64,000 nucleotides of DNA from positions 90,855 through 154,854 of the forward strand of contig CAVZGV010000006.1 in the NCBI GenBank assembly GCA_963774955.1, given 5' to 3'. Both the position numbers and the translations under genes were made by a program. Of the stretch, positions 4,976 through 62,533 are shown one piece after another (the stretch's first letter is position 1; each line of letters starts with the position of its first letter). The DNA comes from Candidatus Falkowbacteria bacterium. Its GTDB lineage: Bacteria > Patescibacteriota > Patescibacteriia > CAIXNZ01. The notes beneath the pieces are model-generated. The model was not told where the DNA came from. It worked only from the letters and a program-made list of their open reading frames with translations, and did not search any database.

Positions 4976-5054
4976 TCTACAGATTACAGATAAGTACAGA
5001 TTTACAAATACATCAGCCGAAATCTGTATATCTGTATAGATCTGTAATCTGTAG
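4976..5054. repeat. long imperfect palindrome of 'tacaRat' units in the rplK-rplA spacer
   Basis: Left arm tacagattacagataagtacagatttac; the right arm is its near reverse complement (gaaatctgtatatctgtatagatctgtaatctgta). A related copy lies at 39898..39972. Confidence 0.6.
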
Positions 5055-5101
5055 AAGTATTGCAACCTAATTAACCTAATATAACCTAAATAAACCATCC
5101 T

Positions 5102-7061: not shown

Positions 7062-7781
7062 ATGTCCTGGCCCAAATATTATACCAACCAAATTCTGATC
7101 CCCTCCGCTGATGGCTTTATCGGCATAGTTTCTGGCTGGACCAAGAAAGAACATATTGAAGAATTAATAGCCAGCGAGAATAAAAGTAAAGTCGGCGCTA
7201 TCGGCCAATTATACAGCAAGGAAGGCATAAACTACATTATTCGCAATCTTTTTTTAAATCCCAAAATGACTCGGCTGATCGTGACCGGCAGAGATTTATC
7301 AGGCAGTGTGAAATTTTTCCAGGAATTTTTAACTAACGGCACGGGGCAAGAAATTATTCACCAAGAAATACCCGCTGAAAAAATTCAAACCTTTATTGAC
7401 TGGTTTAAAACAAATACCGATTTTATTGCCGAAGAGGACTTGAATAAAATATTAAATGAGATTCAGGCTCCGGCCAGCTCCTGGATTTCTGACATAACCG
7501 AATTTCCCGATCCGGCCCAGCGTGAAAACATTGATTTCCCTTCTGAAGCAATCTGTTTTCGTCTGGAAGATAAAAAAATTGCCGATCTCTGGCTGAAAGT
7601 TTTAGACCGAGTTCTAAAATTTGGCGTTAATAAAATGAGCCAGTATTCAGAGATGCAAAGAGAGCTGATCAATATTACGACAGTAATCAACGACGAAGAT
7701 CCGGACAACCCTTTTTTACCCGAGCATCTTTATTTTAATCTCACAAGATCTGGAAAATTATTATCCGCAATTAATGACTGA
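7062..7781 (+). pseudogene. N-terminal extension plus first part of a thymidylate synthase (ThyA)-family gene, ending at a frame break
   Basis: The last ~70 aa (ADLWLKVLDRVLKFG...) align to the ThyA N-terminus (YLELMQKVLDEG...). The ORF stops at a TGA overlapping the ATG of the next fragment (aATGACTGA). The first ~165 aa are an unassigned domain. Confidence 0.45.
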
Positions 7782-8450
7782 CCATGTTTTTGAAGGCGTA
7801 GAATATACTTATGGCAGCCGTTTTCGAAATTTTAACGGCATTAATCAGATTGAAGCCTTAATTAAGGATTTACAGGCCAATAATTACAGCCGCCGCGCCA
7901 TTGCTTTTACCTGGGATGTCATGAAAGATACCGGCAATCCCAAAAGCCCTGTATCAACCTGGTCAATGCCTTGGTCCAGGGAGATAAAGTCTATCTGACA
8001 ACCTATATCCGTTCCAATGATATGTACCGCGCCTGGCCGCAAAACGCCTTTGCCTTAAGAAAAGTTCAAAAGGAAATTGCTGATGCCTTGGGTATAAAAA
8101 TGGGCAAACTCTGTATAATTTCCAATTCAGCCCATATTTATGAACGCGATTTTTTGGCTGCTTCGGAAATGGTGGAAAAACACAAACCGCAGGCTGAATG
8201 CATCCAGGATCCGCGCGGCAGTTTCGCTCTGGCAGTTGAAGACGGAAAAATAGTCGCCAGCCATTTTTCTCCCGACGGCCAGTTTATCCAAAAATTTGAA
8301 GGTCAAACTGCCACTGAAATCAACAACCAAATTTTTACTTACATTTCCGAAATCCTGCATGCCCTGGACTTAGGCCGTGAATTAATGAAAGCGGAATTGG
8401 CCTTGAAAAATAATTTGTCTTACACCCAGGATCGGGAACTAAAAATTTAA
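7774..8450 (+). pseudogene. thyA: thymidylate synthase (ThyA)-family gene body, interrupted by a -1 frame change near 7935-7950
   Basis: Frame +1 gives YGSRFRNF...SRRAIAFTWD (ThyA YGKQWRAW...SRRIIVSAWN). The catalytic P-C (KPCINLVNALVQGDKVYLTTYIRSNDM, cf. APCHAFFQFYV...LYQRSCD) appears only after shifting to frame 0 around caatCCCAAAAGCCC. The gene is therefore read in frames 0, +1, 0 across three ORF fragments. Confidence 0.6.
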
Positions 8451-10627: not shown

Positions 10628-12187
10628 ATGTTAATCCAGAACCCTATGGAATTAATTCCCGTTATCGGGCTGGAAATTCATGTCCAGCTAAAAACTAAAT
10701 CAAAAATGTTTTGCTCCTGTGATAATAGCGGTGAAAACCAACCGGCTAATACTTGTATTTGCCCGATTTGCCTGGGTCATCCGGGAACTTTGCCCGTGGC
10801 TAATAAACAGGCGATTGAGTGGTCGGCCAAAACATCATTGGCCTTAAATTGTACTATAGAGGAATATTCCAAATTTGACCGTAAGCATTACTTTTATCCT
10901 GACCTGCCAAAGGCTTATCAAATTTCCCAATTTGACCAGCCCATCGGCAACAACGGTTATCTGTATATATTAAATCCTGAAATCAACGAAGAAGAGAAAA
11001 TCCGCATCAACCGCCTGCACCTTGAAGAAGACGCGGCCAAGCTTTTGCACACTAATACCAAAGGCTCCAGTCTGATTGATTATAATCGCGGAGGCACGCC
11101 CCTGATGGAAATCGTAACTGAACCAGATATTAAAACCCCAGCCCAGGCAAAACAATTTTTACAAGAATTACGCCAGATTATGCGCTATCTTGATGTTTCT
11201 GAGGCTGATATGGAAAAAGGTCATTTGCGCTGTGATGCCAATATTTCCCTGCATCCGATCGGAGAAGAAAAATTATACCCGAAAACAGAAATAAAAAATC
11301 TCAATTCATTTAAAATGGTGGAGAAAGCTTTGGAATATGAAATCCAACGGCAGACTAAAGCTTGGCTAGAAGGCAATCCCCCCAAGGATTTGACCACCCG
11401 CGGCTGGAATGATGCCAAGGGCATAACCGAAGAACAACGAACCAAAGAAGAAGCCCATGACTATCGTTATTTTCCGGAGCCAGATATTCCGCCTCTCCAT
11501 TTCAAGATCAACCAGGATACTGTTTGCTCTGATAAAGAAATTGCCATTGAGCTGGCCTGTTTAAAAGCAAATATTCCGGAACTTCCGGATGATAAGCGTA
11601 AAAGATTTATAACTGAATATGATATAAATTTAGATGAAGCTAACTTATTGACTGAAGATAAGGCTACGGCTGAATTTTATGAACAGGTTATTTCGGAATT
11701 AAAAGCCTGGATAGAAAATATGGAAGAACCGACCGATAAAAAATATACCTGGGAAGCCAACCGGCTCCAACTGACCAAGCTGGTCAGTAATTGGATTATC
11801 AATAACTTACTCCCCCTCTTAACCGAAAAACAAGTCAAGATTAAAGACATGAAACTAACAGCTGAAAACATGGCTGAATTAGTTTCCCTGATATTCTCCA
11901 AAAAACTGAATTATACTTCAGCCGTACAAATTTTACCCGCTATGCTAGATACTGGCGCTGATCCTTCGCATTTGATGAAGGATCTGAATCTGGGTCAAAT
12001 CTCTGATACTAAAGAGCTGGAAAATATTATTGATCAGGTTATTGAGGCAAATCCCAAGCCCGTAGAGGACTATAAAAAAGGCAAAGAAGCAGCCTTGCAA
12101 GCCGTAGTTGGCAAAGTCATGGCCCAAACTAAAGGTAAAGCTAATGCAGAACTTGTCTTACAGATTTTAAAGCAAAAATTATCTTAA
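10628..12187 (+). CDS. gatB: aspartyl/glutamyl-tRNA(Asn/Gln) amidotransferase subunit B
   Basis: N-terminus MELIPVIGLEIHVQLKTKSKMFCSC (GatB signature), with GatB/YqeY-like C-terminal region. Start trimmed from 10544 (which overlaps the upstream gene) to the Met at 10628/10646. Confidence 0.9.
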   Translation: MLIQNPMELIPVIGLEIHVQLKTKSKMFCSCDNSGENQPANTCICPICLGHPGTLPVANKQAIEWSAKTSLALNCTIEEYSKFDRKHYFYPDLPKAYQISQFDQPIGNNGYLYILNPEINEEEKIRINRLHLEEDAAKLLHTNTKGSSLIDYNRGGTPLMEIVTEPDIKTPAQAKQFLQELRQIMRYLDVSEADMEKGHLRCDANISLHPIGEEKLYPKTEIKNLNSFKMVEKALEYEIQRQTKAWLEGNPPKDLTTRGWNDAKGITEEQRTKEEAHDYRYFPEPDIPPLHFKINQDTVCSDKEIAIELACLKANIPELPDDKRKRFITEYDINLDEANLLTEDKATAEFYEQVISELKAWIENMEEPTDKKYTWEANRLQLTKLVSNWIINNLLPLLTEKQVKIKDMKLTAENMAELVSLIFSKKLNYTSAVQILPAMLDTGADPSHLMKDLNLGQISDTKELENIIDQVIEANPKPVEDYKKGKEAALQAVVGKVMAQTKGKANAELVLQILKQKLS

Positions 12188-20388: not shown

Positions 20389-20502
20389 GAGCGAAAACAG
20401 ACGCTCTTTGTCATTCAGAGTGTAACGAAGAATCCATGGATTCCAGGATTCCACGCTTTGCTCTGAATGACGATTACAGACAAAGAGCGTCTGTTTTCGC
20501 TC
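20389..20502. repeat. long palindromic intergenic element, family 1 (copy 1)
   Basis: gagcgaaaacagacgctctttgtc...cattcagagtg...ctctgaatgacg...gacaaagagcgtctgttttcgctc: nested perfect inverted repeats between thrS and miaB. The core cattcagag/ctctgaatg is shared with copies at 43905 and 61797. Confidence 0.8.
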
Positions 20503-22295: not shown

Positions 22296-22371
22296 GTCCC
22301 GCGGAGCGGGATGCCGCTCTGCGGTATAGATTTGTATCATGCCGCGAAGCGGTATGCCGCTGCGCGGCATT
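22296..22371. repeat. array of four GC tri-loop hairpins in the thrS proximal 5' UTR
   Basis: gTCCCGCggaGCGGGAt, then three units of ATGCCGC-NNN-GCGG(C/T)AT (loops tct, gaa, tgc). Confidence 0.7.
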
Positions 22372-27642: not shown

Positions 27643-28146
27643 TCAACCATTCAGATTGTCCAACTCCTCTCGAAATGCCCAATATAGTGGTTCATCCTTG
27701 AAAGAATTCCTGAGAATAGATGACCACATCATTGTTGCCTCCAAAGGAGCAATATGGCACATATAAGCGATTAATTTAGCACGATTAATTACCAATTGCT
27801 TATAAATTGCCATATTAATGGCTTCAGAATTCGCTTGTGATCTCAAAATCATGGTTAAAATTACTGCAGTTACCGCTATTCTGTCGTCTTCAGTAGCTGG
27901 TGAAGGTAAAATGGTATAGGCCCTAAGCAAGGCCATCTCCATGGTGAAAAAATGTTCACCGTCTCCGCCCATGATCATATTGGCATGTTCCTGCAAATCA
28001 ACAGGACTGAGCTTATAACGTCTGTACAATCTTGTAAAAATTGGGGCGAGATTTTTTTGTGCGTAAAACACTTTTTTCATCATCTGACGATATATAATCT
28101 CCGCGATTATTATTCCGCCGAAAATAATGATTGCCCTAAACAGCAT
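27643..28146 (-). CDS. hypothetical membrane-anchored protein, paralog A of a duplicated cassette
   Basis: N-terminal TM. The C-terminal region (LIAYMCHIAPLEATMMWSSILRNSFKDEPLYWAFREELDNL) is paralogous to the 29084..29602 product (LIARILVMTNSYNVRLWNSYIDSTFKDPQLSADIRKEF). Confidence 0.5.
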   Translation of the reverse strand: MLFRAIIIFGGIIIAEIIYRQMMKKVFYAQKNLAPIFTRLYRRYKLSPVDLQEHANMIMGGDGEHFFTMEMALLRAYTILPSPATEDDRIAVTAVILTMILRSQANSEAINMAIYKQLVINRAKLIAYMCHIAPLEATMMWSSILRNSFKDEPLYWAFREELDNLNG

Positions 28147-28255
28147 TTGCTATCCTCCTTTTCTTCTTTTGCGTTATAAACCAAACTTAGCGGATTATCT
28201 CTTTAATGTCAAATAGAAAAGCCCCAAAAGTTGGGGCTTTAATTTGTTATTGTTA
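28147..28255 (-). promoter_or_regulatory. conserved hairpin + TTGACA promoter + AAGGAGG module (copy 1)
   Basis: Minus strand: agccccaacttttggggct hairpin, TTGACAttaaagagataatccgcTAAGTT, aaggaggatagcaaATG. Near-identical to 28982..29083. Confidence 0.55.
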
Positions 28256-28981
28256 TTATTTCATCACTCTTGCTTTGTTTTGCATAAGTCTGAGGATAAA
28301 TTTGGTTAATCTCTCAAACCAATAGCTGCTCAAAAACAAGAGGACAAAGCATCCTAGCCCCAAGGCTGAACCGAAGAAGAATTGCAAATGAAGGAAAACT
28401 ATGGCTACTCCTGCAAGCGGTAATAACATAAGCAGGTAAAACAAAACCTTTAGTAAGGGCCACGGAAGCTTGGTATCGACTACAAGTTTAATGCCAAATT
28501 TTTCCCGCAAATTTTGAATCAACATTCCCTGCAAAGGTTCAGGGGAATTAAAAGCTAAGTCTGGATTTTGGCAGCAGATCACCAAATGCAGACTCAGCAA
28601 ATCTAGGGCTGTTTGATCCCTGTGTGCCATTAAGGGCAAAACTTCGTTTATCAGCTTGCTCCATAAAGATTTATTGACGTAGATCAGAATGTCTATGACT
28701 GAAATTGCATACTCGATAGGCAGAGCATACAATTTTTCTAAAATGACTTGGAGGTCAGAAATTAGAAATATTTCGCCTTCTTCGAGTTTAGGAGCCAGCT
28801 CCCTCGCGTACCTCCACCGATCTCCATAGACGCTCTCGTGTTTTTTAGCCTCAGCCAAAACCCTGTTTCTGATAATATAATACGGCTTAAGAGTTACCAG
28901 CGCGTATATATATTCCAGTGGAGTGAATTTTGGCAGTTCCTCAGAGAAACGAAAAAGTTCCGCAAAAATCTTTCCCAGCAT
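28256..28981 (-). CDS. hypothetical protein with C-terminal TM helices
   Basis: 241 aa with a hydrophobic C-terminal third. Flanked on both sides by the duplicated intergenic module. Confidence 0.45.
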   Translation of the reverse strand: MLGKIFAELFRFSEELPKFTPLEYIYALVTLKPYYIIRNRVLAEAKKHESVYGDRWRYARELAPKLEEGEIFLISDLQVILEKLYALPIEYAISVIDILIYVNKSLWSKLINEVLPLMAHRDQTALDLLSLHLVICCQNPDLAFNSPEPLQGMLIQNLREKFGIKLVVDTKLPWPLLKVLFYLLMLLPLAGVAIVFLHLQFFFGSALGLGCFVLLFLSSYWFERLTKFILRLMQNKARVMK

Positions 28982-29083
28982 CTGTTATTCTCCTTTTCTC
29001 CTTTTTACTTTATAAACCAAACTTAACAAATTATCTCCTTAATGTCAAAAAAAAGCCCCGGATAAATCGGGGCTAAGAGATAA
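28982..29083 (-). promoter_or_regulatory. conserved hairpin + TTGACA promoter + AAGGAG module (copy 2)
   Basis: tataaaccaaacttaacaaattatctccttaatgtcaaaaaaaagccccggataaatcggggct: same architecture as 28147..28255. Confidence 0.55.
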
Positions 29084-29602
29084 TTACTTCTGCAATTGCA
29101 AGGCGAATTCTTTCCTGATATCCGCACTCAATTGTGGATCCTTGAACGTAGAATCGATATAGGAATTCCACAACCTTACATTATAAGAATTGGTCATAAC
29201 CAAAATTCTGGCAATAAGCCTTGCCTTATCAATTTGCTGTTGTTTATAGATTGCTTTCAGCAAAACTGCAGCAATATTTTTTTTATACAGCAATAAAACA
29301 TGTAGAAGCAAGGCGGCCATAGCCAGCATTGAGTCCTCATCTTCTTTTTGGCAAACGAAAGTAACTATTTTCTCTACCACTGCCTCAGCTTGATTTGCCT
29401 GCCCTTCATACTCTTTCCAGCCAGAAATAGCATATTGGTGTATTTGAGGCAGATCCATTCCATAAGATTCAGTCTCGGCAAATAGCCTTTTAAGATGCTT
29501 AATCCCTTGCTGCTCTTGTTTTTTGATACTAATCTTTATGAAAAGAGCTAGAACCAACAACCCCAGACAGACGCCTCCGACAATAAAAGCCATAGTAATC
29601 AT
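29084..29602 (-). CDS. hypothetical membrane-anchored protein, paralog B
   Basis: Same architecture as 27643..28146. Confidence 0.5.
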   Translation of the reverse strand: MITMAFIVGGVCLGLLVLALFIKISIKKQEQQGIKHLKRLFAETESYGMDLPQIHQYAISGWKEYEGQANQAEAVVEKIVTFVCQKEDEDSMLAMAALLLHVLLLYKKNIAAVLLKAIYKQQQIDKARLIARILVMTNSYNVRLWNSYIDSTFKDPQLSADIRKEFALQLQK

Positions 29603-29735
29603 CTGCTCCTCCTTCCCTTCCTTAAAGACTTGTTGAACTTAATAAATCTAACAAATTACCGTCTATAAGTCAAACCATAAATCTTTTCCCTCGATTGCCT
29701 CTATTTTCCTTTAATATTCTCCTTGTATTTTCCTA

Positions 29736-33181: not shown

Positions 33182-33919
33182 TCAACCAAAAACCATATCC
33201 TGAGTTGGCAGGAAATTTAAGCCCATGCTTTTATCTTTAGCTTTATTGAATGAATCACGAATATATTCCTGGTCAATCTGTGCCAAGAGCTTTGCTAAAC
33301 TAATATTTTTATCAAAATTCTCAGCTGGCCAAATAACAATTTTTTCATTATAGCTTAAATAAATAAACTTGGGAGTCCTTAAAAGAAAGTTATAACCATA
33401 ATATTTTAATTGCAAATTTTCCAGGACCAGATCACCGATATTACTTTCTTCATTATATTCACCTAATAAAAATTTATCCTTGTTATTATTAGCAGGCAGT
33501 AAATTTATATAGCCAACAGCTGAAGTAATTTCATATTTAACCTGCCTTATAATATTAAGCCAATATTTAATTTCCTCAGAATCATTAGCTTCTATATTCT
33601 TTAGCCCGTATTTAATCACTGCCTTAATAACATCAATAACAATTTTATACTTAAACGGCTGCCAAAAACGTAATGCCAAATTTATATCATCTCGGAATTT
33701 AAAAAAATGTTTATTATTATTAAACCATTTAATTTCACCAAATTTACGATTGTGTTCATTAACTATTTGGTTCAAATTAGTTTTATCAATATCAATAAAT
33801 TCCTCTTCTTCAAATAATCCTAGCGGTTGTGTTTTAGGCACCAAAAAATAGCCGGTTATATTTGCGCATAAAACCGCGTAAAATATAGATTCAAATTTGT
33901 CAGAATATTTAATGATCAT
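33182..33919 (-). CDS. hypothetical protein (very AT-rich)
   Basis: 245 aa, lysine/asparagine-rich. No recognisable motif. Confidence 0.45.
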   Translation of the reverse strand: MIIKYSDKFESIFYAVLCANITGYFLVPKTQPLGLFEEEEFIDIDKTNLNQIVNEHNRKFGEIKWFNNNKHFFKFRDDINLALRFWQPFKYKIVIDVIKAVIKYGLKNIEANDSEEIKYWLNIIRQVKYEITSAVGYINLLPANNNKDKFLLGEYNEESNIGDLVLENLQLKYYGYNFLLRTPKFIYLSYNEKIVIWPAENFDKNISLAKLLAQIDQEYIRDSFNKAKDKSMGLNFLPTQDMVFG

Positions 33920-36941: not shown

Positions 36942-37998
36942 GGGTATAAGGGGTCCAAACTGGTTGGTGAATTAATGATTTTTGAAATGAATATACCAGC
37001 TAAAGTAATTGTTTCTGTTATCTTTGCTTAATCCTGAATGCTGGCGATACAATCTTTTTAAACGAGAAAAATATCCTTCAAGTTTATTCGTTGATTTGGC
37101 GATATTCGGATTATCTAAATAATGGAACATGTCGGGCAAGGCATGAATTACTAAGCTTCTAGTTCTTTGCAAATCACTAAAGACTTTGTGGTTACAGTCG
37201 AGTCTTGAAACCGCTTTGCCGAATTTTCTTTCCCACTTATGAAAATCTGAAATAAATTTATGTTTTTCCGGATAATTGTTAATGTTTGTTACCGCCAGTA
37301 ATATCTTGCGTAATTGTATCGATGGCTCCAGTTTAGGACGCATTCTTAACCAAGATAATCCCTGCCTCTGGATATGAACGATACAGCGCTGTATTACGAT
37401 ATTCGGCCATGCGTCCTTTAAGGCTCTAATTACGCTAGTATTACCGTCAATTGTAATGGCTGTAGGCTTGATTCCTTTATCTGACAGCTCCTTGAACAGC
37501 TCAAGGGCGGCAAAGTAATTTTCACGCCTTAAATACCTATTTGTGATGATTTGGCCATTGGCATTATTCATTGCCAGCATTAAGCAATTCATGCGGTGGA
37601 AATATGTACCATCAAAAAGCAGATATTTTATTCCGGTTTGTACGTTTAAAGGGCTCGGTAATTTTGCGAGCCAATAACTGATTATTCCCTTAATTGTTTT
37701 CCTGCTGTGGTGGCTAATTCCCGAAATTTGCCTGACTGAATATCCTTCGGCTATCCATAATTTAAACCATTTAAGTTGGCGGTTCAATTTATTCTTTGCA
37801 TTGCGGAAAACAAACAGTCGATTGCACTTCCCGCACTTGAATCTTTGCCGTCCGCAATCATTTTGGCCATAAAAAATTACATTATTAGAGGAGCAATCTG
37901 GACAAGTTTTTTTTCATAATATTGAACCAGTTTAATATTAAGTATCAATTTTAATCTAACCTTAACAGAAATTTTGTCTTTTCACCAACCAGTTTGGG
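36942..37998 (-). mobile_element. IS1595-family-like insertion sequence (1057 bp)
   Basis: 29-bp imperfect terminal inverted repeats (GGTATAAGGGGTCCAAACTGGTTGGTGAA at 36942-36970; reverse complement of 37970-37998 is GGTAAATGGTACCCAAACTGGTTGGTGAA). Flanking 7-bp direct repeat CAAAGGG (36935-36941 and 37999-38005). Single transposase gene inside. Confidence 0.85.
36972..37916 (-). pseudogene. IS transposase: N-terminal zinc ribbon plus DDE domain, with a frame change in an A8 run
   Basis: ATG at 37916, then A8 (37906-37913). Frame +1 continues KKTCPDCSSNNVIFYGQNDCGRQRFKCGKCNRLFVF (IS1/IS1595-type zinc finger) in frame with the 271-aa ORF. C-terminus NKLEGYFSRLKRLYRQHSGLSKDNRNNYFSWYIHFKN resembles the IS1595 DDE tail (N.xEG.wS.LKR...G.yH..S...L..Y..Ef.fryN). 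Confidence 0.8.
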
Positions 37999-38141
37999 TA
38001 CCATTTACCCAAAGGGACTTTGACTCCGAAGGCATATATAATCGCATTTGTCCTGCTTGCCGCGAAACCAACAGCCACAAAGCTGATGATTTCAATGATT
38101 CTGCAGCGGCCGAATCATTATTTAACCGCTGGCAAAGGTAA
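37999..38141 (+). pseudogene. 3' part of zinc-ribbon paralog 2, downstream of the IS
   Basis: Reads DFDSEGIYNRICPACRETNSHKADDFNDSAAAESLFNRWQR*. Joining 36941 to 38006 (removing the IS and one TSD copy) restores an in-frame gene ...CLRCQRDFDSEGIYNRICPACR..., parallel to paralog 1. Confidence 0.7.
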
Positions 38142-42824: not shown

Positions 42825-43053
42825 ATGATTTGTCTCTATTTTAGCACTGTTTGAATTATATTGACAAGAAAGTCTCAACTCGTTTCTAGGATTTGCGTGC
42901 TCCTTGACAAAACATAAAAAAAATGATATTGTTATATATTGTAAACCCATTAAGGCAGGGGGACTAAATACTGCCCAGGCTGCCACGTTCGTGGCAACCG
43001 ACAACCTTTACCACCCCGCAGTGCGGGGCCAAATCCGGAAAGGGAGGAAGAAC

Positions 43054-43791
43054 ATGAGAGCGAAAGATTTGATGTGTGCCAAGGCTAAGGACGGAATCCT
43101 ATTGATCGAAGGATTAAAGGATTACCACTTGAGAGTGCTGGGCGCAACCATGCCCTGCAGTTCACATGGGACTGATACGGTCAATTCATTTTACCTGACA
43201 CCGATTAAAGACCAGAAAGGTCTGGTGTCTGTCCATGTTTGCGCAGCTAACCACGCTAAAGTAGCATGTTTTTTCCTGAACGTTGATTTTAGCGGTCAGG
43301 AACCGATCATTGACCTGGAAAATCAATGGCTGCCTCAAGCGGACCGGTTGGGTCAGGTCTATGACAGGGGCATCGAGGTAATGATTGAGAGTATCCTTTT
43401 CTCCTCGCGGCTGTGCTTTGATAGCCGACTGCCCGAGAACTATGTGGCGGGTGATGTTCTCTGTCGCTACCTGATCGGCGAAATCAGCGCCGAGGATGTC
43501 CACCAAGCAGTCACCAACTTGGCTGATGAAATCAGCGCCCGGGCCAAACTGCCTGAGCTGGAAGAATCAGTCAAACGCTATCAGACTGAACTTGAAACCG
43601 TCACCGCGGATCGAGATGAATTCAAACACGTAATCCATGAGAAAACCCAAAAACTCGATTTAATGGCCGACTTCACCAATCACTTACGCGATTTGGTCAA
43701 ACAACTCGAAAAAAGTCTGGCCTCAAAGTGGTTCCTGAGCAAAAAAGACAAGCAACTGCTGGAATCTTTGAACCAGGTAAGCTGGCGCTAA
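43054..43791 (+). CDS. hypothetical protein with C-terminal coiled coil (GC-rich islet)
   Basis: GGGAGG RBS before MRAKDLMCAKAKDG. TTGACA promoter at ~42944. Structured GC-rich 5' leader containing the cccgcagtgcgggg hairpin. Terminator at ~43824-43857. Confidence 0.5.
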   Translation: MRAKDLMCAKAKDGILLIEGLKDYHLRVLGATMPCSSHGTDTVNSFYLTPIKDQKGLVSVHVCAANHAKVACFFLNVDFSGQEPIIDLENQWLPQADRLGQVYDRGIEVMIESILFSSRLCFDSRLPENYVAGDVLCRYLIGEISAEDVHQAVTNLADEISARAKLPELEESVKRYQTELETVTADRDEFKHVIHEKTQKLDLMADFTNHLRDLVKQLEKSLASKWFLSKKDKQLLESLNQVSWR

Positions 43792-43904
43792 GGCCAGAAA
43801 TCTAACCAAAACAAATAAAAGCGCGAGCCAATCCTGGTTCGCCTTTTTTTATATAAATTTTTATGGCTGCGGTAAAAACAACGTAGTTGTAACTTTTTCT
43901 AAAC

Positions 43905-44003
43905 AAAAAAGACAAACCGTCTGTAAGTCATTCAGAGCGCAGCGTGGAATCCATGAAGTCCTGGATTCTTCGTTTCACTCTGAATGACGATTTGTCTTTT
44001 TTT
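43905..44003. repeat. long palindromic intergenic element, family 1 (copy 2, inverted relative to copy 3)
   Basis: aaaaaagacaaaccgtctgtaagtcattcagagcgcagcgtggaatccatgaagtcctggattcttcgtttcactctgaatgacgatttgtcttttttt. Confidence 0.8.
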
Positions 44004-44466
44004 ATTTCTCAGTTTTTAATTTATCAATCAGCTCCTGATAATCCATGGTGATCACGTGCAGGTCATGAATAATATTAGTACAATTTTGCGTATATTTTCG
44101 CCTGGGGATTAATTGCCAGTGCAGATGAGCTATGGAACAGCCGGAAAACTTACCGACATTAATGCCGAAATTAAATGATTCAGTGGCAAATAAATCTGCC
44201 AAGGCTTTCTTGCTTTTAGCAAATATTGTAAAAAACTCCGCCTTTTCTTGATCATTAAGGTCCTCCACCTGACAGACATGCCTTTTGGGGACCAGCATTA
44301 AATTACCGTCCAGATACGGATATTTATTGGCTATTACTAACCAATGCTCCCCTTCTAAGCTTTTTACCGACTGGGCCTGTAAATTTTCAGGATCACAAAA
44401 CTGGCAGGTTTTGATTTTATCTTTTACTTTCCGGTATTGAGCCCGGCTTGGTTCTAATACTTTCAT
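44002..44466 (-). CDS. HIT-superfamily protein (GalT/Ap4A-phosphorylase-like variant)
   Basis: CQFCDPE...LVPKRHV...AHLHWQLIP: HIT-like triad with the third His replaced by Gln. Confidence 0.6.
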   Translation of the reverse strand: MKVLEPSRAQYRKVKDKIKTCQFCDPENLQAQSVKSLEGEHWLVIANKYPYLDGNLMLVPKRHVCQVEDLNDQEKAEFFTIFAKSKKALADLFATESFNFGINVGKFSGCSIAHLHWQLIPRRKYTQNCTNIIHDLHVITMDYQELIDKLKTEK

Positions 44467-46789: not shown

Positions 46790-47075
46790 AAAATTAAAGT
46801 TACTAATTGTTTAACCGCGTGCTTGCCTGCCGAAGCTTTAGCGAAGGCAGGGCGACTCCCCAAAAATTTAAAACTACTAATTGTTTAACCGCTTGCTTGC
46901 CCGCCAGAGCCTGAAAGGCGTAGGCGGGGCGACTCCCCAAAGGTGTTAATGACCAATAATCAATAACCAATAACCAAATAATTTTCAAATCTCAAATACC
47001 AAAATTATTTTACTAACTTTCAACCGCTTGCTTGCCCGCCAGAGCCTGAAAGGCGTAGGCGGGACGACTACCCAA
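46785..47075 (-). repeat. three tandem ~75-nt pseudo-tRNA-like repeats, each starting with the tRNA-Gln 5' acceptor segment
   Basis: On the minus strand each unit begins ttGGGGAGTCGCC (identical to the tRNA 5' end), then a GC hairpin (ccgcctacgcctttcaggctctggcggg or ctgccttcgctaaagcttcggcagg), a D-loop-like aagc(ac)gcggttaaac and an AT-rich tail. Units 2 and 3 are near-identical. Confidence 0.7.
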
Positions 47076-53811: not shown

Positions 53812-53923
53812 TTAATTAAAGTGCTTGCCCAGTTAAAAGTTTGTGTAATCTATAGATTAACAGGATAAAGAGAATTTAAGAATCCAACCATTTTACATAA
53901 TTTTTACATAGACTTTTAACTGG

Positions 53924-53994
53924 GCGGGATTAGTATAGTGGTAGTACGCGACCTTCCCAAGGTCATAGCGCCGGTTCGATTCCGGTATCCCGCT
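53924..53994 (+). tRNA. tRNA-Gly (anticodon CCC)
   Basis: gcgggat ta gtat agtggta gtac g cgacc TTCCCAA ggtca tag gccgg ttcgatt ccggt atcccgc t. Discriminator is U. Confidence 0.7.
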
Positions 53995-54076: not shown

Positions 54077-54128
54077 CTTTAGGGGTTTCCCGCGCAGCGG
54101 GACTTCGCTCCGCGGAGCGATCCCCCTT
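54077..54128. terminator. nested GC tri-loop hairpin structure after the tRNA pair
   Basis: AGGGGtttCCCGCgcaGCGGGacttCGCTCCgcgGAGCGatCCCCT. Confidence 0.55.
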
Positions 54129-56280: not shown

Positions 56281-56310
56281 AGAAATATTTAAATTAAAAA
56301 GTAAAAGCCG

Positions 56311-56340
56311 CGGAGCGGCTTCCCGCTACGCGGGAAAATT
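56311..56340. terminator. paired GC tri-loop hairpins
   Basis: aaGCCGCggaGCGGCtTCCCGCtacGCGGGAaaa. Confidence 0.55.
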
Positions 56341-60477: not shown

Positions 60478-60561
60478 AATTTAAGCTTATTATGCAAGAA
60501 TTTTATCATATTTATAATCTAATCACAATGACTTCATCAGTTACATCTACGGCACAAAACC

Positions 60562-60596
60562 TTGACAAATAAATAAAAACATGATAGAATTACGAA
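60562..60596 (+). promoter_or_regulatory. promoter of the VWA gene
   Basis: TTGACAaataaataaaaacatgaTAGAAT. Confidence 0.5.
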
Positions 60597-60677
60597 TCGA
60601 AATTAAATTATTTAAGGGAAATAGCCAAAAGATAACGAACCTTAAAATCCCAGAAATCTGAAACAAAGGAGAAAGTA

Positions 60678-61340
60678 ATGGCGGATGAACTGATGGTGCG
60701 GCAATTGTCTGAATTGGCCAAAACCAAAAAGGTCACCTTGACGGTCATGGTTCTGGACAAATCAGGGTCCATGGCCAATTTCGGCACTGCCCCGATGGAC
60801 ATGGTCAATGAGATTATCAGCAAACTCAAAGCTGAAAATAATGACCAAAACGAATACTATTTCGGACTGGTCAGTTTCGCAGACATGATGAAACTCGAAA
60901 TCCCCATTAACAAAGTTGACCAAATCGACCCATTGCTGAGTTACAACCCCGACGGCAACACCCAGCTCTATAAGACGGCGAGAAACGTCATTTCCTCCCT
61001 GCTGAATCTGGTGCATGATCTGCCCGAGGAACTACAAAGCAACATTAAGGTCGTAGTCGGCGTCGTCTCTGACGGAATGGACAATCGCTCGCCCCGCGAC
61101 CGATATCCCGAGAAACTCCAGCAGACCAGCAAACGAGCCCTGAAACACGGGTTTGAACTACTGGCCTACGGTATCGGCATCGATGCCACTCGTCTGGCTT
61201 ATGCTATGGGATTCCTCGAAGCCAAGGGATTTACCCTTTCGGGGCAGGCCAGAAGCTTCGTAGATGTGGGCGCCTCAGTGTGCGAATTCTCCACCTGCGG
61301 AGGATGGAGAAAAAATTCCACCCCGCCCAGCAATCCGTAA
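60678..61340 (+). CDS. von Willebrand factor type A (VWA) domain protein (GC-rich)
   Basis: MIDAS motif VMVLDKSGSM (DxSxS) and downstream SDGMDN; 220 aa. Strong terminator at 61345-61380. Confidence 0.65.
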   Translation: MADELMVRQLSELAKTKKVTLTVMVLDKSGSMANFGTAPMDMVNEIISKLKAENNDQNEYYFGLVSFADMMKLEIPINKVDQIDPLLSYNPDGNTQLYKTARNVISSLLNLVHDLPEELQSNIKVVVGVVSDGMDNRSPRDRYPEKLQQTSKRALKHGFELLAYGIGIDATRLAYAMGFLEAKGFTLSGQARSFVDVGASVCEFSTCGGWRKNSTPPSNP

Positions 61341-61507
61341 TCAAACACAAAAGGGCCGATGGTTTTACCATCAGGCCCTTTTTTTATATTATCAGTAAAT
61401 ATCTTGACATTTGCCATAAAAGATATTACAATACAGCTAATATACAAATTTAATTGATTTTGCTATAATTAGCTTAACCAAAACATGGTTATTTTTTATT
61501 TAAACAT

Positions 61508-61581
61508 CGCGGGGTAGAGCAGTCTGGCAGCTCGTCGGGCCCATAACCCGAAGGTCGTTGGTTCAAATCCAACCCCCGCAA
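61508..61581 (+). tRNA. initiator tRNA-fMet (anticodon CAU)
   Basis: C1:A72 mismatch (cgcgggg...ccccgca) and three G-C pairs closing the anticodon stem (tcGGG CCCATAA CCCga). T-arm gttgg ttcaaat ccaac. Confidence 0.7.
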
Positions 61582-61716
61582 CAAGACGACTTAGTAGCTC
61601 CCGCCTACGCTCCGGCTTCGGCGGGCAGGCAGTACTGGAAGAAAAGATTTGAAAGAACGGCCTACCGACTTCGCTAGTAACTTTAAAAATAAAATTTAAT
61701 AGATTTTACAATACAT

Positions 61717-61789
61717 GACTCGGTAGCTCAGTCGGTAGAGCAACTGCCTTTTAAGCAGTGGGTCCCGGGTTCGAGCCCCGGCCGGGTCA
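61717..61789 (+). tRNA. tRNA-Lys (anticodon UUU)
   Basis: gactcgg ta gctc agtcggtag agc a actgc CTTTTAA gcagt gggtc ccggg ttcgagc cccgg ccgggtc a. Confidence 0.8.
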
Positions 61790-61796
61790 CAAAAAT

Positions 61797-61894
61797 AAAA
61801 AAGACAAACCGTCATCCAGAGCGGAGCGAAGAATCCAGGACTTCATGGATTCCACGCCTTGCTCTGAATGACTTACAGACGGTTTGTCTTTTTT
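61797..61894. repeat. long palindromic intergenic element, family 1 (copy 3)
   Basis: aaaaaagacaaaccgtcatccagagcggagcgaagaatccaggacttcatggattccacgccttgctctgaatgacttacagacggtttgtctttttt. Confidence 0.8.
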
Positions 61895-61897
61895 ATT

Positions 61898-62533
61898 TTA
61901 TTTAACTTTTTCCTCAAACTCCAAAATATCCTTTTTTGTATTTAAAGGTTGCCAAAAACCTTCATGCTTATAGACTTTTAATTTCATTTTGGGAAAAACA
62001 TCATATTCCAGACTACCTTTAACAGGCAAGAGACTGATCAAATCGTCTTTTTTAAATAAGTACCAGCCGCAACTGACCCAATCATTCAAAATTGGTTTTT
62101 CAATGAACTTAGCCAAGCCGTCTTGTTCTTGGACCAAACCAAACGGTAACTGCGGGTGAGCCACGCAAATAGCATTCGGTCCCAGCGCTGCCAACAGTGT
62201 CAGATCAATATCCGTAATATCATCGCAATTTAAACACAGGACATTGTCAGATTGAACCGGCTCCAAAGCCTGACGCAAGGCACCGGCCGTGCCCAGCGGT
62301 TCTTTTTCAATCACAAATTCAATGGGATAATCGGGATAATTTACTTTTACATACTCGATTATCTCATCAGCCTTATAGCCTAAAGACAAAACTATTTTTG
62401 CTAACTTTTTGGTACCAAGCAACCAATCCAGCTGATGTCCTAAAATCGCCTTGTCCTTAACTTTGACCAGTGATTTGGGCAAAACATCTTCCATGCGATT
62501 GCCTTTGCCACCGGCTAAAATAATAGCTTCCAT
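61898..62533 (-). CDS. sugar-phosphate nucleotidyltransferase (NTP_transferase family)
   Basis: MEAIILAGGKGNRMEDVLPKSLVKV is the G-x-G-x-R nucleotidyltransferase N-terminus; 211 aa. Confidence 0.7.
   Translation of the reverse strand: MEAIILAGGKGNRMEDVLPKSLVKVKDKAILGHQLDWLLGTKKLAKIVLSLGYKADEIIEYVKVNYPDYPIEFVIEKEPLGTAGALRQALEPVQSDNVLCLNCDDITDIDLTLLAALGPNAICVAHPQLPFGLVQEQDGLAKFIEKPILNDWVSCGWYLFKKDDLISLLPVKGSLEYDVFPKMKLKVYKHEGFWQPLNTKKDILEFEEKVK

Follow-up and report, generated by a model that had tools for sequence, protein, structure and literature searches.

Paired GTC-tagged hairpins at gene 3' ends in a Candidatus Falkowbacteria genome, probably a new family of REP-type repeats

REP-type repeats are best known from Proteobacteria. 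Among them, the superfamily of CGTC-tagged REPs includes Neisseria dRS3 and Rickettsia RPE-4 and RPE-6 and has been reported in five phyla, namely, Proteobacteria, Chlorobi, Bacteroidetes, Spirochaetes, and Thermotogae (Di Nocera, De Gregorio & Rocco 2013, PMC3733652). Its units are defined by a CGTC or TGTC tag (variant CCTC), a stem opening with A-T then T-A, and a CCA tail; they have 8 to 9 clean stem pairs and a 4- to 5-nt loop, and occur mostly as head-to-head dimers, often heterodimers, between tandem or convergent ORFs (PMC3733652). In Neisseria, the NTS reads CGTCATTCCCGCGMAVGCGGGAATCYRG; for the GIY-YIG nuclease SsnA to bind and cut it, the positions that matter most are a GTC immediately preceding the palindrome and the C that directly follows it (Nat Commun 2025, PMC11893778). 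The E. coli repeat REP325 is both a terminator and a stabilizer. REPINs flanked by an A run and a T run have been interpreted as co-opted terminators (PMC3116915, PMC3337134).

Here, we describe Family 1, a palindromic repeat present three times in a 64-kb stretch of Candidatus Falkowbacteria DNA (hereafter, the window). Altogether, our analysis favors its being a new family of a known repeat type, i.e., non-coding, non-autonomous, dispersed pairs of REP-type hairpins that have probably been co-opted to stop transcription in both directions. A sequence-only reading had located three copies, and pattern search, palindromes, and a covariance model all recovered them at the same places, as maximal palindromes at 20389-20502 (114 nt), 43905-44002 (98 nt), and 61792-61899 (108 nt), at a density of ~1 per 21 kb. 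A 62-nt core is common to the three. The pattern CATTCAGAG-N40-70-CTCTGAATG has two exact matches in the window, copy 3 differing by one mismatch (GTCATCCAGAG), and 0 of 100 dinucleotide-preserving shuffles contained a match. With filters off, the core covariance model scored the three copies at 79 to 92 bits against 11 bits for the next-best match in the 64-kb window, where it found no fourth copy. The window also held no "empty" type-A outer hairpin devoid of a core, and a structural search for extra GTCA-hairpin units returned 8 matches for 4.4 expected, i.e., noise. As that reading had also noticed, copy 3 matches the reverse complement of copy 2 (90% over 107 nt, A6/T6 flanks included), whereas copy 1 has an outer stem of its own, perfect over 24 nt, and a 10-nt loop in the opposite orientation. 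The features of the three copies are listed in Table 1.

Table 1. Coordinates of the Family 1 features, numbered from the first nucleotide of the window
Feature	Position	Strand	Remark
Copy 1, outer left arm GAGCGAAAACAGACGCTCTTTGTC	20389..20412		Perfect complement of 20479-20502; unique in window
Copy 1, final GTC of outer left arm	20410-20412		Overlaps core
Copy 1, 62-nt core	20410..20471	-	Covariance model 78.8 bits, minus strand
Copy 1, hairpin units	20410-20435 and 20446-20471		Inverted about 10-nt loop 20436-20445
Copy 1, one-sided bulge GATTACA	20472..20478		Junction of core and outer right arm
Copy 1, outer right arm GACAAAGAGCGTCTGTTTTCGCTC	20479..20502		
Copy 2, A6 tract and outer left arm AAAAAAGACAAACCGTC	43905..43921		
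Copy 2, one-sided bulge TGTAA	43922..43926		
Copy 2, 62-nt core	43927..43988	+	Covariance model 92.2 bits, plus strand
Copy 2, hairpin units	43927-43952 and 43963-43988		Loop 43953-43962
Copy 2, outer right arm and T tract (GATTTGTCTTTTTT)	43989..44002		Reaches HIT-family stop codon
Copy 3, A6 tract and outer left arm AAAAAAGACAAACCGTC	61797..61813		Starts 7 nt past tRNA-Lys
Copy 3, 62-nt core	61811..61872	-	Covariance model 81.6 bits, minus strand
Copy 3, core arm GTCATCCAGAG			Gives U-G wobble on minus strand
Copy 3, one-sided bulge TTACA	61873..61877		
Copy 3, outer right arm and T6 (GACGGTTTGTCTTTTTT)	61878..61894		4 nt from nucleotidyltransferase stop

The core consists of two slightly different hairpin units of ~26 nt arranged head to head with their tags outward, and the tags are outside in all 22 copies now at hand (3 in the window and ~19 elsewhere). 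Each unit comprises an NGTC tag, a stem ATTC...GAAT, an interior AGAGCGAAGCG(A/T)(A/G) or AGAGTGTAACG.., and a CC(A) tail. In the tag, GTC is invariant; of the six units in the window, three have C before it, one has T, and two have A, and the tag is TGTC in the diverged relatives and likewise in 104 of the 117 units from a viral collection. Read directly from the sequence, the unit stem has nine positions and six Watson-Crick pairs: A-T, T-A, T-A, and C-G, then three non-Watson-Crick positions (A.G, G.U or G.A, and A.G), then G-C and C-G closing a 3-nt loop. The tail is GAAT-CCA in five of the six window units and CCT in one unit of copy 1. The two units within a copy differ from each other in a conserved fashion (CGTGG versus CGAAG; TGTAA versus CGAAG). 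Moreover, arm-to-arm pairing was 85.8% as observed and 89.2% +/- 0.6 when arms were shuffled; since shuffling raises pairing above the observed value, the arms are kept different from each other.

Constraint was measured as the per-site pairwise difference among 11 type-A copies. It was 0.000 in the middle stem, 0.032 in the inner stem, and 0.059 in the outer stem, i.e., the paired parts, and 0.105 in the loop, 0.229 in the 5-nt internal loops, and 0.582 in the bulge, which is one-sided in every copy of the family. The covariation check proposed by the sequence-only reading gave a split answer: the core is too conserved for any covariation within it to be measurable, whereas the outer stems vary by subfamily with both arms changing jointly (GACAAACCG/CGGTTTGTC, CAGGCGG/CCGCCTG, GACAAGCAG/CTGCTTGTC, and AACGCCTTTTG/CAAAAGGCGTT). 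Related units show compensatory changes as well (ATTCT/AGAAT, ATTTC/GAAAT, ATACC/GGTAT, ATCCC/GGGAT, ACCCT/AGGGT, and ATCC/GGAT). As for further copies, ~19 were found, in a Candidatus Falkowbacteria genome (L001) and in metagenome contigs; both further copies and paired outer-stem changes thus exist, the lack of which it had taken as the mark of a chance local duplication.

Interior segments are inverted between copies. Two loci, L003 and L018, differ only in that the 30 nt at their center are exactly inverted, and in L004 and L017, where the element lies 3' of the orthologous efp stop codon, the entire interior is inverted between the two. These comparisons show that interior segments invert in place, via the perfectly paired stems.

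The family has spread within a narrow Parcubacteria/Falkowbacteria-related lineage. In relatives whose flanking proteins are 70 to 84% identical, unrelated small hairpins occupy the same sites: the thrS-MiaB spacer carries unrelated hairpins in four of them, and unrelated simple terminators follow the tRNA-Lys 3' end. Across ~145 kb of relatives' DNA, we found no canonical copy and one diverged copy. Since the orthologous sites of relatives hold unrelated hairpins, the gain or replacement of the element is placed in this lineage. Phage and plasmid collections gave no blastn match to copy 3, and viral contigs no match to the family-specific pattern. The translated element, used as a protein query, retrieved no candidate from the protein database, hence gene callers have not usually reported it as an ORF there. 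Literature searches by sequence or peptide returned primers only, or nothing, and no paper linking the Candidate Phyla Radiation to such repeats was found in the literature. Several contigs end inside a copy; such elements break assemblies and mark rearrangement points.

A short, palindromic, multi-copy sequence at which contigs often break could be a classical MITE, i.e., an insertion sequence that has lost its internal part and depends on a DDE transposase supplied in trans, which acts on its terminal inverted repeats, and a Mutator/IS256-like transposase fragment is present in the window (36972-37787). However, no target-site duplication was detected at 17 copies, shared flanking bases amounting to 0 to 2 nt, the chance level. 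The 30-nt inverted repeats of the IS256-like sequence (36942-36971 and 37981-38010) are unrelated to the ends of the element, and no full-length insertion sequence sharing its termini was found, the Mutator/IS256-like remnant at 36942-38010 being the sole one in the window. Moreover, the outer ends vary by subfamily while the interior stays constant, the opposite of what preservation by a terminal-repeat-binding transposase would give. We therefore regard the MITE reading as very improbable. The earlier description as a "dispersed bidirectional terminator/MITE-like element" holds for a dispersed palindrome at gene 3' ends with A/T-tract flanks in copies 2 and 3; its "MITE-like" part is too loose, because there is neither a target-site duplication nor an insertion sequence with the same ends.

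Mobilization as a REPIN, i.e., as a REP doublet moved by a RAYT (an IS200-like Y1 transposase) whose single-copy gene is located elsewhere in the genome, accords with the architecture, in which two imperfect palindromes in inverted orientation form one long hairpin, and with the extragenic location, the two orientations, and the A/T-run flanks described for REPINs. The head is nevertheless of the GTC type (NGTC, then A) and not the GTAG typical of RAYT-associated REPs, and Pfam found no Y1 transposase among the scanned window ORFs (66 of 67 predicted ORFs plus a 295-aa ORF) or among 10 ORFs adjoining copies elsewhere. More broadly, a search of the window and of the neighborhoods of copies elsewhere for a RAYT, Y1 transposase, TnpB, or GIY-YIG gene gave nothing relevant. 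On these grounds, RAYT-driven mobilization seems improbable.

The genomic context agrees with what had been reported from the sequence, i.e., thrS/MiaB for copy 1, convergent genes for copy 2, and tRNA-Lys for copy 3. Copy 1 is bounded by the thrS stop (20510, minus strand) and the MiaB-like start (20379, minus strand), its minus-strand end being 9 nt ahead of that start codon. Copy 2 sits between convergent genes, adjoining the HIT-family gene (44002-44466, minus strand), and copy 3 between tRNA-Lys (61717-61790) and a convergent nucleotidyltransferase gene (61898-62533, minus strand); both are 1 to 8 nt from stop codons or the tRNA end. All 22 copies are intergenic, none lying inside an ORF. 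The 13 copies with both flanks resolved all adjoin at least one gene 3' end, 5 in convergent and 8 in tandem spacers; their absence from divergent spacers (0/13) is suggestive only (roughly p = 0.05). In one public assembly, the MiaB-like start is placed 33 nt too late, an example of how such elements can mislead gene callers.

Being intergenic and abutting gene 3' ends, the element is probably transcribed as part of a 3' untranslated region or an intercistronic spacer. In copies 2 and 3, a run of U6-7 directly follows the stem on both strands, and the anatomy suggests that a long hairpin then a U-tract could bring about intrinsic termination in both directions where the flanking genes converge. 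Copy 1 is different: its U4 lies inside the outer arm, and AUUUAGU, which is no U-tract, comes after the stem. No promoter hexamers were seen by eye between this hairpin and the MiaB-like start codon. Given the AUUUAGU, the 9 nt to the start codon, and the lack of visible hexamers, copy 1 cannot be an efficient terminator; in the thrS/MiaB-like spacer, it might rather serve as an attenuator or an mRNA-stabilizing hairpin, as with E. coli REPs. Elsewhere in the genome, ordinary sigma-70-like promoters and hairpin-plus-T terminators are found, and a terminator scan made no call at the element. Termination or stabilization by the element is predicted from its anatomy.

On either strand, each copy forms a single long hairpin (z-scores from -7.7 to -12), and the folding energies of copies 2 and 3 range between -43 and -58 kcal/mol. 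Such very stable folding, together with conserved paired and variable unpaired segments, would also suit a gene for a stable structured RNA, which the sequence-only reading had offered as its other option. Rfam, in gathering and permissive modes, matched no family to the element; for the window, five element loci, and 14 viral loci, its output was tRNAs and sub-threshold microRNA-hairpin noise only. Moreover, no promoter of its own was seen, the element abuts stop codons, both orientations relative to neighboring genes are found, the interior inverts freely, and neither strand is consistently better folded. A small RNA gene is accordingly scarcely credible, and we dropped this option in favor of REP-type hairpin pairs.

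The spread of the element was probably through an enzyme that recognizes the units as single-stranded DNA hairpins. One candidate explanation, tentative and on the unlikely side, is an NTS/SRM-like system, in which the units, as hairpins of single-stranded DNA, would be the cognate sites of a single-domain GIY-YIG nuclease of the Ssn family whose gene is located elsewhere in the genome. Such a nuclease would bind the units, cut a little upstream of the GTC tag (by a few bases), and thereby affect the recombination of incoming DNA, which is compatible with a terminator role. Family 1 units and Neisseria NTS/dRS3 have an identical head (CGTCATTC) and tail (GAATCCAG), and every Family 1 unit reads GTC-ATTC...GAAT-C, i.e., keeps both SsnA-critical positions. 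A second unit type in L027, GTCATACC...GGTATCC, parallels NTSvar (CGTCATAC...GTATC), and the hypervariable bulge is located immediately 5' to a GTC tag, at the position of SsnA cleavage. Moreover, a near-identical 25-mer, GTCATTCWGAGCGNAGCGWRGAATC, occurs 117 times in 96 stretches of the viral collection, at 32 to 69% GC, and one unrelated contig, L138, carries a 101-aa single-domain GIY-YIG gene (PF01541, E = 3e-12) with units on both sides, as in the NTS-ssnA-NTS layout. Several observations weigh against the nuclease. As a regular expression, the SRM pattern HGTCWYN(0-2)YYVSBRHN(0-5)WNVSBRGN(0-2)RNCYNB matched the NTS control and none of the Family 1 units or diverged relatives. Searches of the 64-kb window with Pfam (66 of 67 predicted ORFs plus the 295-aa ORF at 42904-43791) and with tblastn returned no GIY-YIG ORF, the single-domain cd10448 type included. 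The unit-flanked GIY-YIG gene of L138 is a single case from a different organism, and a search for its relatives retrieved only L138 itself. The sole GIY-YIG gene on a contig bearing Family 1, in L004, is truncated and has no flanking units. Lastly, the main text of PMC11893778 makes no mention of Patescibacteria.

A wider proposal, which we hold to be rather doubtful, is that the units of Family 1, together with the near-identical 25-mer TGTCATTCTGAGCGNAGCGAAGAATC of contigs at 32 to 69% GC, would be recognition hairpins of an uncharacterized branch of Ssn, the single-domain GIY-YIG nucleases. Patescibacteria are thought to be dependent on DNA uptake. If the proposal were true, an NTS/SsnA-like system would edit incoming single-stranded DNA in these bacteria, and the one-sided hypervariable bulge upstream of GTC would be the scar of repeated cleavage and repair. 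In any case, the core halves belong to a hairpin unit highly conserved across unrelated contigs and found once beside a GIY-YIG gene, which constitutes a lead for the newly described Ssn nucleases. As for the REP-type reading that we favor, it implies that even very reduced, tightly packed genomes of the Parcubacteria type (roughly the 1-Mb class) keep and turn over REP-type repeats at gene ends.

Compared with known systems, copies 2 and 3 resemble bidirectional Rho-independent terminators in having an A-tract, a stable stem, and a T-tract between convergent 3' ends. Unlike such terminators, the hairpin spans ~86 to 100 nt with internal loops, far beyond the usual length, Family 1 is a multi-copy sequence family and not locus specific, and copy 1 lacks a proper U-tract. 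As in REPINs, the unpaired parts vary while pairing is kept (Bertels & Rainey 2011, PMC3116915, PMC3337134), and E. coli REP/BIME sequences likewise form 3'-UTR hairpins serving as terminators and stabilizers. However, REPIN units stand at the outer ends with a long spacer, whereas Family 1 units are central and nearly abutting, inside an extra stem. With NTS, Family 1 shares an almost always extragenic hairpin repeat with the head CGTCATTC and a tail GAATCC(A)G; it differs by an inner stem that is not the GC-rich CCGC/GCGG, by the lack of clustering around particular genes, and by a window without an ssn gene.

The closest relatives are the CGTC-tagged REPs, from which Family 1 departs in several respects. 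Only the outer four pairs of the unit stem are continuous Watson-Crick pairs, followed by mismatches, G-C, C-G, and a 3-nt loop; two of the six units in the window are tagged AGTC; no more than ~8 to 10 nt separate the units of a dimer; and the dimer is wrapped in an outer stem with A/T tracts and a one-sided 4- to 7-nt bulge. The Parcubacteria/Patescibacteria host is, moreover, outside the five phyla reported for these repeats. CGTC-tagged REPs are likewise without a known dedicated transposase, and the two families have in common the CCA-type tail, the stem opening with A-T then T-A, the outward tags, the heterodimers of two unit variants foldable separately or as one long hairpin, and the location downstream of coding regions, between tandem and convergent ORFs.

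The window holds exactly three copies of Family 1. A repeat search grouped those first noticed in the sequence-only reading, at the same places, into a single family (direct family D1, 62 to 66 nt, with inverted pairs I1 to I3), and the pattern CATTCAGAG-N40-70-CTCTGAATG had two exact matches in the window and matched 0 of 100 shuffles, copy 3 carrying a single mismatch to it (GTCATCCAGAG). A covariance model built from 21 Family 1 copies and scanned across the entire window with filters off scored the three copies at 79 to 92 bits and the next match at only 11 bits, so that no more than these three exist in the window. Copies 2 and 3, which had been taken as mutual reverse complements, are 90% complementary across 107 nt. 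On both strands, each copy folds into one long hairpin (-43 to -69 kcal/mol; z-scores of -7.7 to -12).

Oriented alike, the copies run from the outer left arm through a one-sided 4- to 7-nt bulge, GTCATTCAGAG, N5, CG(TG/AA)GAATCC, and a 10-nt loop to GGATTC(TT/CA)CG, N5, CTCTGAATGAC, and the outer right arm. The core is almost invariant across copies, and the outer stem falls into subfamilies: AAAAAAGACAAACCGTC/GACGGTTTGTCTTTTTT (copies 2 and 3 and nine others), AAAAAACAGGCGG/CCGCCTGTTTTTT, GACAAGCAGTC/GACTGCTTGTC, and a second type (e.g., AAACGCCTTTTGTC/GACAAAAGGCGTTT) that includes the 24-nt arm of copy 1, whose outer stem had rightly been singled out as unlike that of copies 2 and 3. The two arms differ in concert between subfamilies, i.e., the compensatory changes between copies that the same reading had envisaged do exist. 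Among 11 copies of the first outer-stem type, the per-site pairwise difference was 0.000 in the middle stem, 0.032 in the inner stem, and 0.059 in the outer stem, versus 0.105 in the loop, 0.229 in the N5 internal loops, and 0.582 in the bulge; thus, paired segments are far more constrained than unpaired ones. Moreover, the arms of each copy are asymmetric with mismatches conserved at fixed positions, and shuffling arms among copies raised the pairing (85.8% observed versus 89.2% +/- 0.6), so that every copy joins two half-sequences that differ from each other, a combination that is conserved.

Interiors can also be inverted in place. Among loci on other contigs, L003 is L018 with the central 30 nt exactly inverted, L004 has the N5 arms swapped relative to L018, and in L025 and L038b, the middle stem, not the loop, is inverted; in copy 1, only the loop is inverted, as had been noticed. 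In L004 and L017, the element lies immediately 3' of the orthologous efp stop codon with a common outer stem, and the entire interior, including the bulge, has opposite orientations in the two. From these flipped interiors, we infer that inversion through perfectly paired stems is an ongoing process at the DNA level.

A scan of 185,579 species genomes with a 24-base symmetric pattern gave one match, in a Candidatus Falkowbacteria bin, 3' of a gene stop codon. With a slightly looser pattern, 43 stretches were retrieved from the metagenome collection, of which 16 held genuine elements (a single JGI sample supplied most), and the others were GC-rich chance matches. After fuzzy and model searches, ~22 copies were known, the window's included, which bears out the expectation of further copies. 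All are intergenic, and each of the 13 with both flanks resolved adjoins at least one gene 3' end (5 convergent, 8 tandem, 0 divergent), the 3'-end position described for the three window copies (thrS, convergent genes, and tRNA-Lys) being upheld. Several contigs break off within a copy, which a repeat would lead one to expect.

In syntenic thrS-MiaB loci of relatives with ThrS 70 to 84% identical, Family 1 was absent from the spacer of all fetched loci, each having its own different hairpin: a small GC hairpin and TTTT located 6 nt upstream of the ATG of the MiaB-like gene; a GAAGAAGCGATT hairpin (L048); a plain two-way terminator with an inserted gene; or a GC-rich palindrome. Unrelated simple terminators follow the relatives' tRNA-Lys, and window ORF 33182-33919, which is followed by a plain terminator, has an orthologue in L029 with a copy at its 3' side. 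Across ~145 kb of DNA from relatives, there was no canonical copy; a single diverged one lies at the stop of the MiaB-like gene in L048. Judging by these loci, the element was gained, or replaced other hairpins, in this lineage. No empty common outer hairpin devoid of the core was seen in the window, and no target-site duplication around 17 copies.

The window (39% GC) carries housekeeping genes (gyrB, nusG, L11, L1, gatB, dnaE, guaA, lexA, thrS, MiaB-like, murein ligases, and thiI); its gyrB belongs to a 90%-identity cluster named "Candidatus Parcubacteria bacterium," and relatives of its thrS bear the names Parcubacteria or Patescibacteria. Elsewhere in this genome, promoters, Shine-Dalgarno sites, and terminators (a hairpin plus T) are of the ordinary kind. 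Since the UPF0004 domain starts at residue 2, the true start of the MiaB-like gene is MKYFLYIYGCQMN, so that the end of copy 1 precedes the start codon by 9 nt; one public assembly places this start 33 nt too far downstream, beside the repeat. The gene lacks a Shine-Dalgarno site in the window genome and in relatives, and the promoter position in L047 suggests a leaderless mRNA.

Copies 2 and 3 lie between convergent 3' ends, 1 to 8 nt from a stop codon or tRNA end, and their stable stem runs directly into U6-7 in both directions, the form of a predicted two-way intrinsic terminator. Copy 1 has only an internal U4, followed by AUUUAGU, and stands where relatives have a small hairpin just ahead of the MiaB-like start; it would more probably attenuate transcription or protect the thrS mRNA, in the manner demonstrated for REP325 of E. 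coli. REPINs bearing runs of A and T have been interpreted as terminators arisen by co-option (PMC3116915, PMC3337134). Of the proposed dispersed bidirectional terminator or MITE-like element, dispersal and the terminator-like form of copies 2 and 3 thus stand, and the lack of target-site duplication speaks against the MITE-like part; the alternative of a structured small RNA found no support.

Other repeats and irregularities of the window and of related loci are listed with the copies.

Features of the window and of other loci (L-numbers)
Feature	Locus	Positions	Remarks
Copy 1, maximal palindrome	window	20389-20502	between thrS stop (20510) and MiaB-like start (20379), both minus strand
Copy 2, maximal palindrome	window	43905-44002	adjoins HIT-family gene stop (44002), minus strand
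Small terminator	window	43823-43850	own terminator of plus-strand ORF facing copy 2
Copy 3, maximal palindrome	window	61792-61899	between tRNA-Lys (end 61790) and nucleotidyltransferase gene stop (61898), minus strand
tRNA-Met/tRNA-Lys/VWA-domain gene block	window	~60478-61899	inverted versus close relatives L050, L051, L052 (tRNAs after nucleotidyltransferase gene, same strand); copy 3 at one junction
Promoter TTGCCA-17-TATTAT	L047	13930-13976	ends 7 nt ahead of MiaB-like ATG
Second repeat family, 99-102 nt, 16-19-nt terminal inverted repeats GCCCAGTTAAAAGTTT...AAACTTTTAACTGGGC	window	53827-53925	each copy directly touches a tRNA gene 5' end; here tRNA-Gly
Same	L004	10773-10874, 12358-12459	
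Same	L051	~10835-10930	tRNA-Met/tRNA-Lys spacer
Insertion-sequence remnant	window	36942-38010	30-nt inverted repeats 36942-36971 and 37981-38010; 271-aa ORF (36972-37787, minus strand), partial Mutator/IS256-family transposase match; unrelated to Family 1
GC-rich 26-nt palindromes CCGCGGAGCGGGATGCCGCTCTGCGG	window	22299-22324, 22342-22367, 54090-54115, 56308-56333	intergenic; two tandem copies just after thrS start
GC-rich hairpin repeats (…CTGCCCGCCGAAG…GGCGGG…)	window	46810-47075, ~61600-61650	three tandem-spaced 57-nt copies beside tRNA-Gln; one between tRNA-Met and tRNA-Lys
Same	L050	~11110-11290	similar sequence interrupts duplicated tRNA-Lys 3' fragment
Hairpin GAAGAAGCGATT...AATCGCTTCTTC	L016; L048	1074-1158; 11770-11800	intergenic spacers, two different genomes; thrS-MiaB position in L048
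Thymidylate synthase region	window	7062-8450	three ORFs: 7062-7781, no Pfam match; 7774-7998, ThyA positions 91-136; 7971-8450, ThyA 159-227 plus pterin-binding domain; one fused 486-aa gene in relative L049; could be frameshifts, pseudogene, or sequencing errors
80-nt palindrome	window	4976-5055	repeated TACAGAT-like units, between L11 and L1 ribosomal protein genes
Repeated 31-72-nt segments	window	28167-28238, 29003-29074, 29644-29674	terminator in each; 3' of three tandem ORFs without Pfam match (27643-28146, 28256-28981, 29084-29602); looks like local gene triplication
GIY-YIG gene	L138	10844-11149, minus strand	101 aa, single domain (PF01541, E = 3e-12)
TGTCATTCTGAGCGAAGCGAAGAATCTC units	L138	10731-11228	flank GIY-YIG gene; head-to-head dimer one side, single unit other side

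Each half of the core reads NGTC-ATTC-AGAG-(CGAAG or TGTAA)-CG(TG/AA)-GAAT-CCA. On contigs with Family 1, other elements join identical outer stems to different halves: GTCATTTCGAGCGTAGCCGAGAAATCCC and GTCATACCGACCGAAGCGGAGGTATCCC (L027), GTCATCCCGAATGAAATGAGGGATCTC (L003), GTCACCCTGAGGCTCTCGAAGGGTGA (L001, a Candidatus Falkowbacteria genome), GTCATTCTGAATTTAATAAAGAATCT and GTCATCCAGAGCATTGCGAAGGATCC (L048), and GTCATTCTGAGCGGAGCGAAGAATCC (L014). In all of these variant halves, the 4 to 5 bases after GTCA pair with the bases preceding the tail, a pairing within the half that the long hairpin does not need, which points to the halves being local hairpin units under compensatory change.

In the viral-contig collection, the pattern GTCATTCWGAGCGNAGCGWRGAATC, which specifies 23 bases, matched 117 times across 96 stretches, mostly as single units, on contigs of 32 to 69% GC; T precedes GTC in 104 of the 117, and 5 are identical to one Family 1 half. 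These loci also carry units with a GAGCGNAGCGA loop and the compensatory stems ATCCT, ACCCT, ATTTT, and ATGCT, such hairpins numbering 199 versus 29 in shuffles. No description of the 25-mer TGTCATTCTGAGCGAAGCGAAGAATCTC, which occurs in these 96 stretches, was found in the searchable literature. In Neisseria, SsnA binds single-stranded DNA folded as the NTS hairpin and cleaves it a few bases 5' of GTC, and NTS-ssnA-NTS is a repeat-gene-repeat layout (PMC11893778); the GIY-YIG gene of L138 (IMGVR_UViG_3300041409_000894), a viral-collection contig, and its flanking units show a like layout, as one case in a different organism. Pfam searches of 66 of the 67 predicted ORFs and of one further 295-aa ORF, together with tblastn, found no GIY-YIG gene in the 64-kb window, and the sole such gene on a contig with Family 1 is truncated and has no units beside it. 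We therefore keep a tie of Family 1 to Ssn nucleases as a rather doubtful hypothesis and a testable side lead.

The closest published description is that of CGTC-tagged REPs, which carry a CGTC or TGTC tag, a stem opening A-T then T-A, and a CCA tail, form mostly head-to-head dimers with tags outside, often heterodimers, and lie between tandem and convergent ORFs with no known dedicated transposase (Di Nocera, De Gregorio & Rocco 2013, PMC3733652). Family 1 halves fit it in tail, dimer layout, and location, and in part in tag and stem; the 8 bases at either end are common to them and Neisseria dRS3/NTS, CGTCATTCCCGCGMAVGCGGGAATCYRG, a member of this superfamily (PMC11893778). They differ in a mismatched inner stem, in an AGTC tag in two window units, and in not matching the published degenerate motif of Ssn-related repeats. 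Altogether, Family 1 is most aptly classed as a new family of GTC-tagged hairpin dimers of the REP type, enclosed by an outer stem that resembles a terminator and residing in the genome of a member of Patescibacteria.
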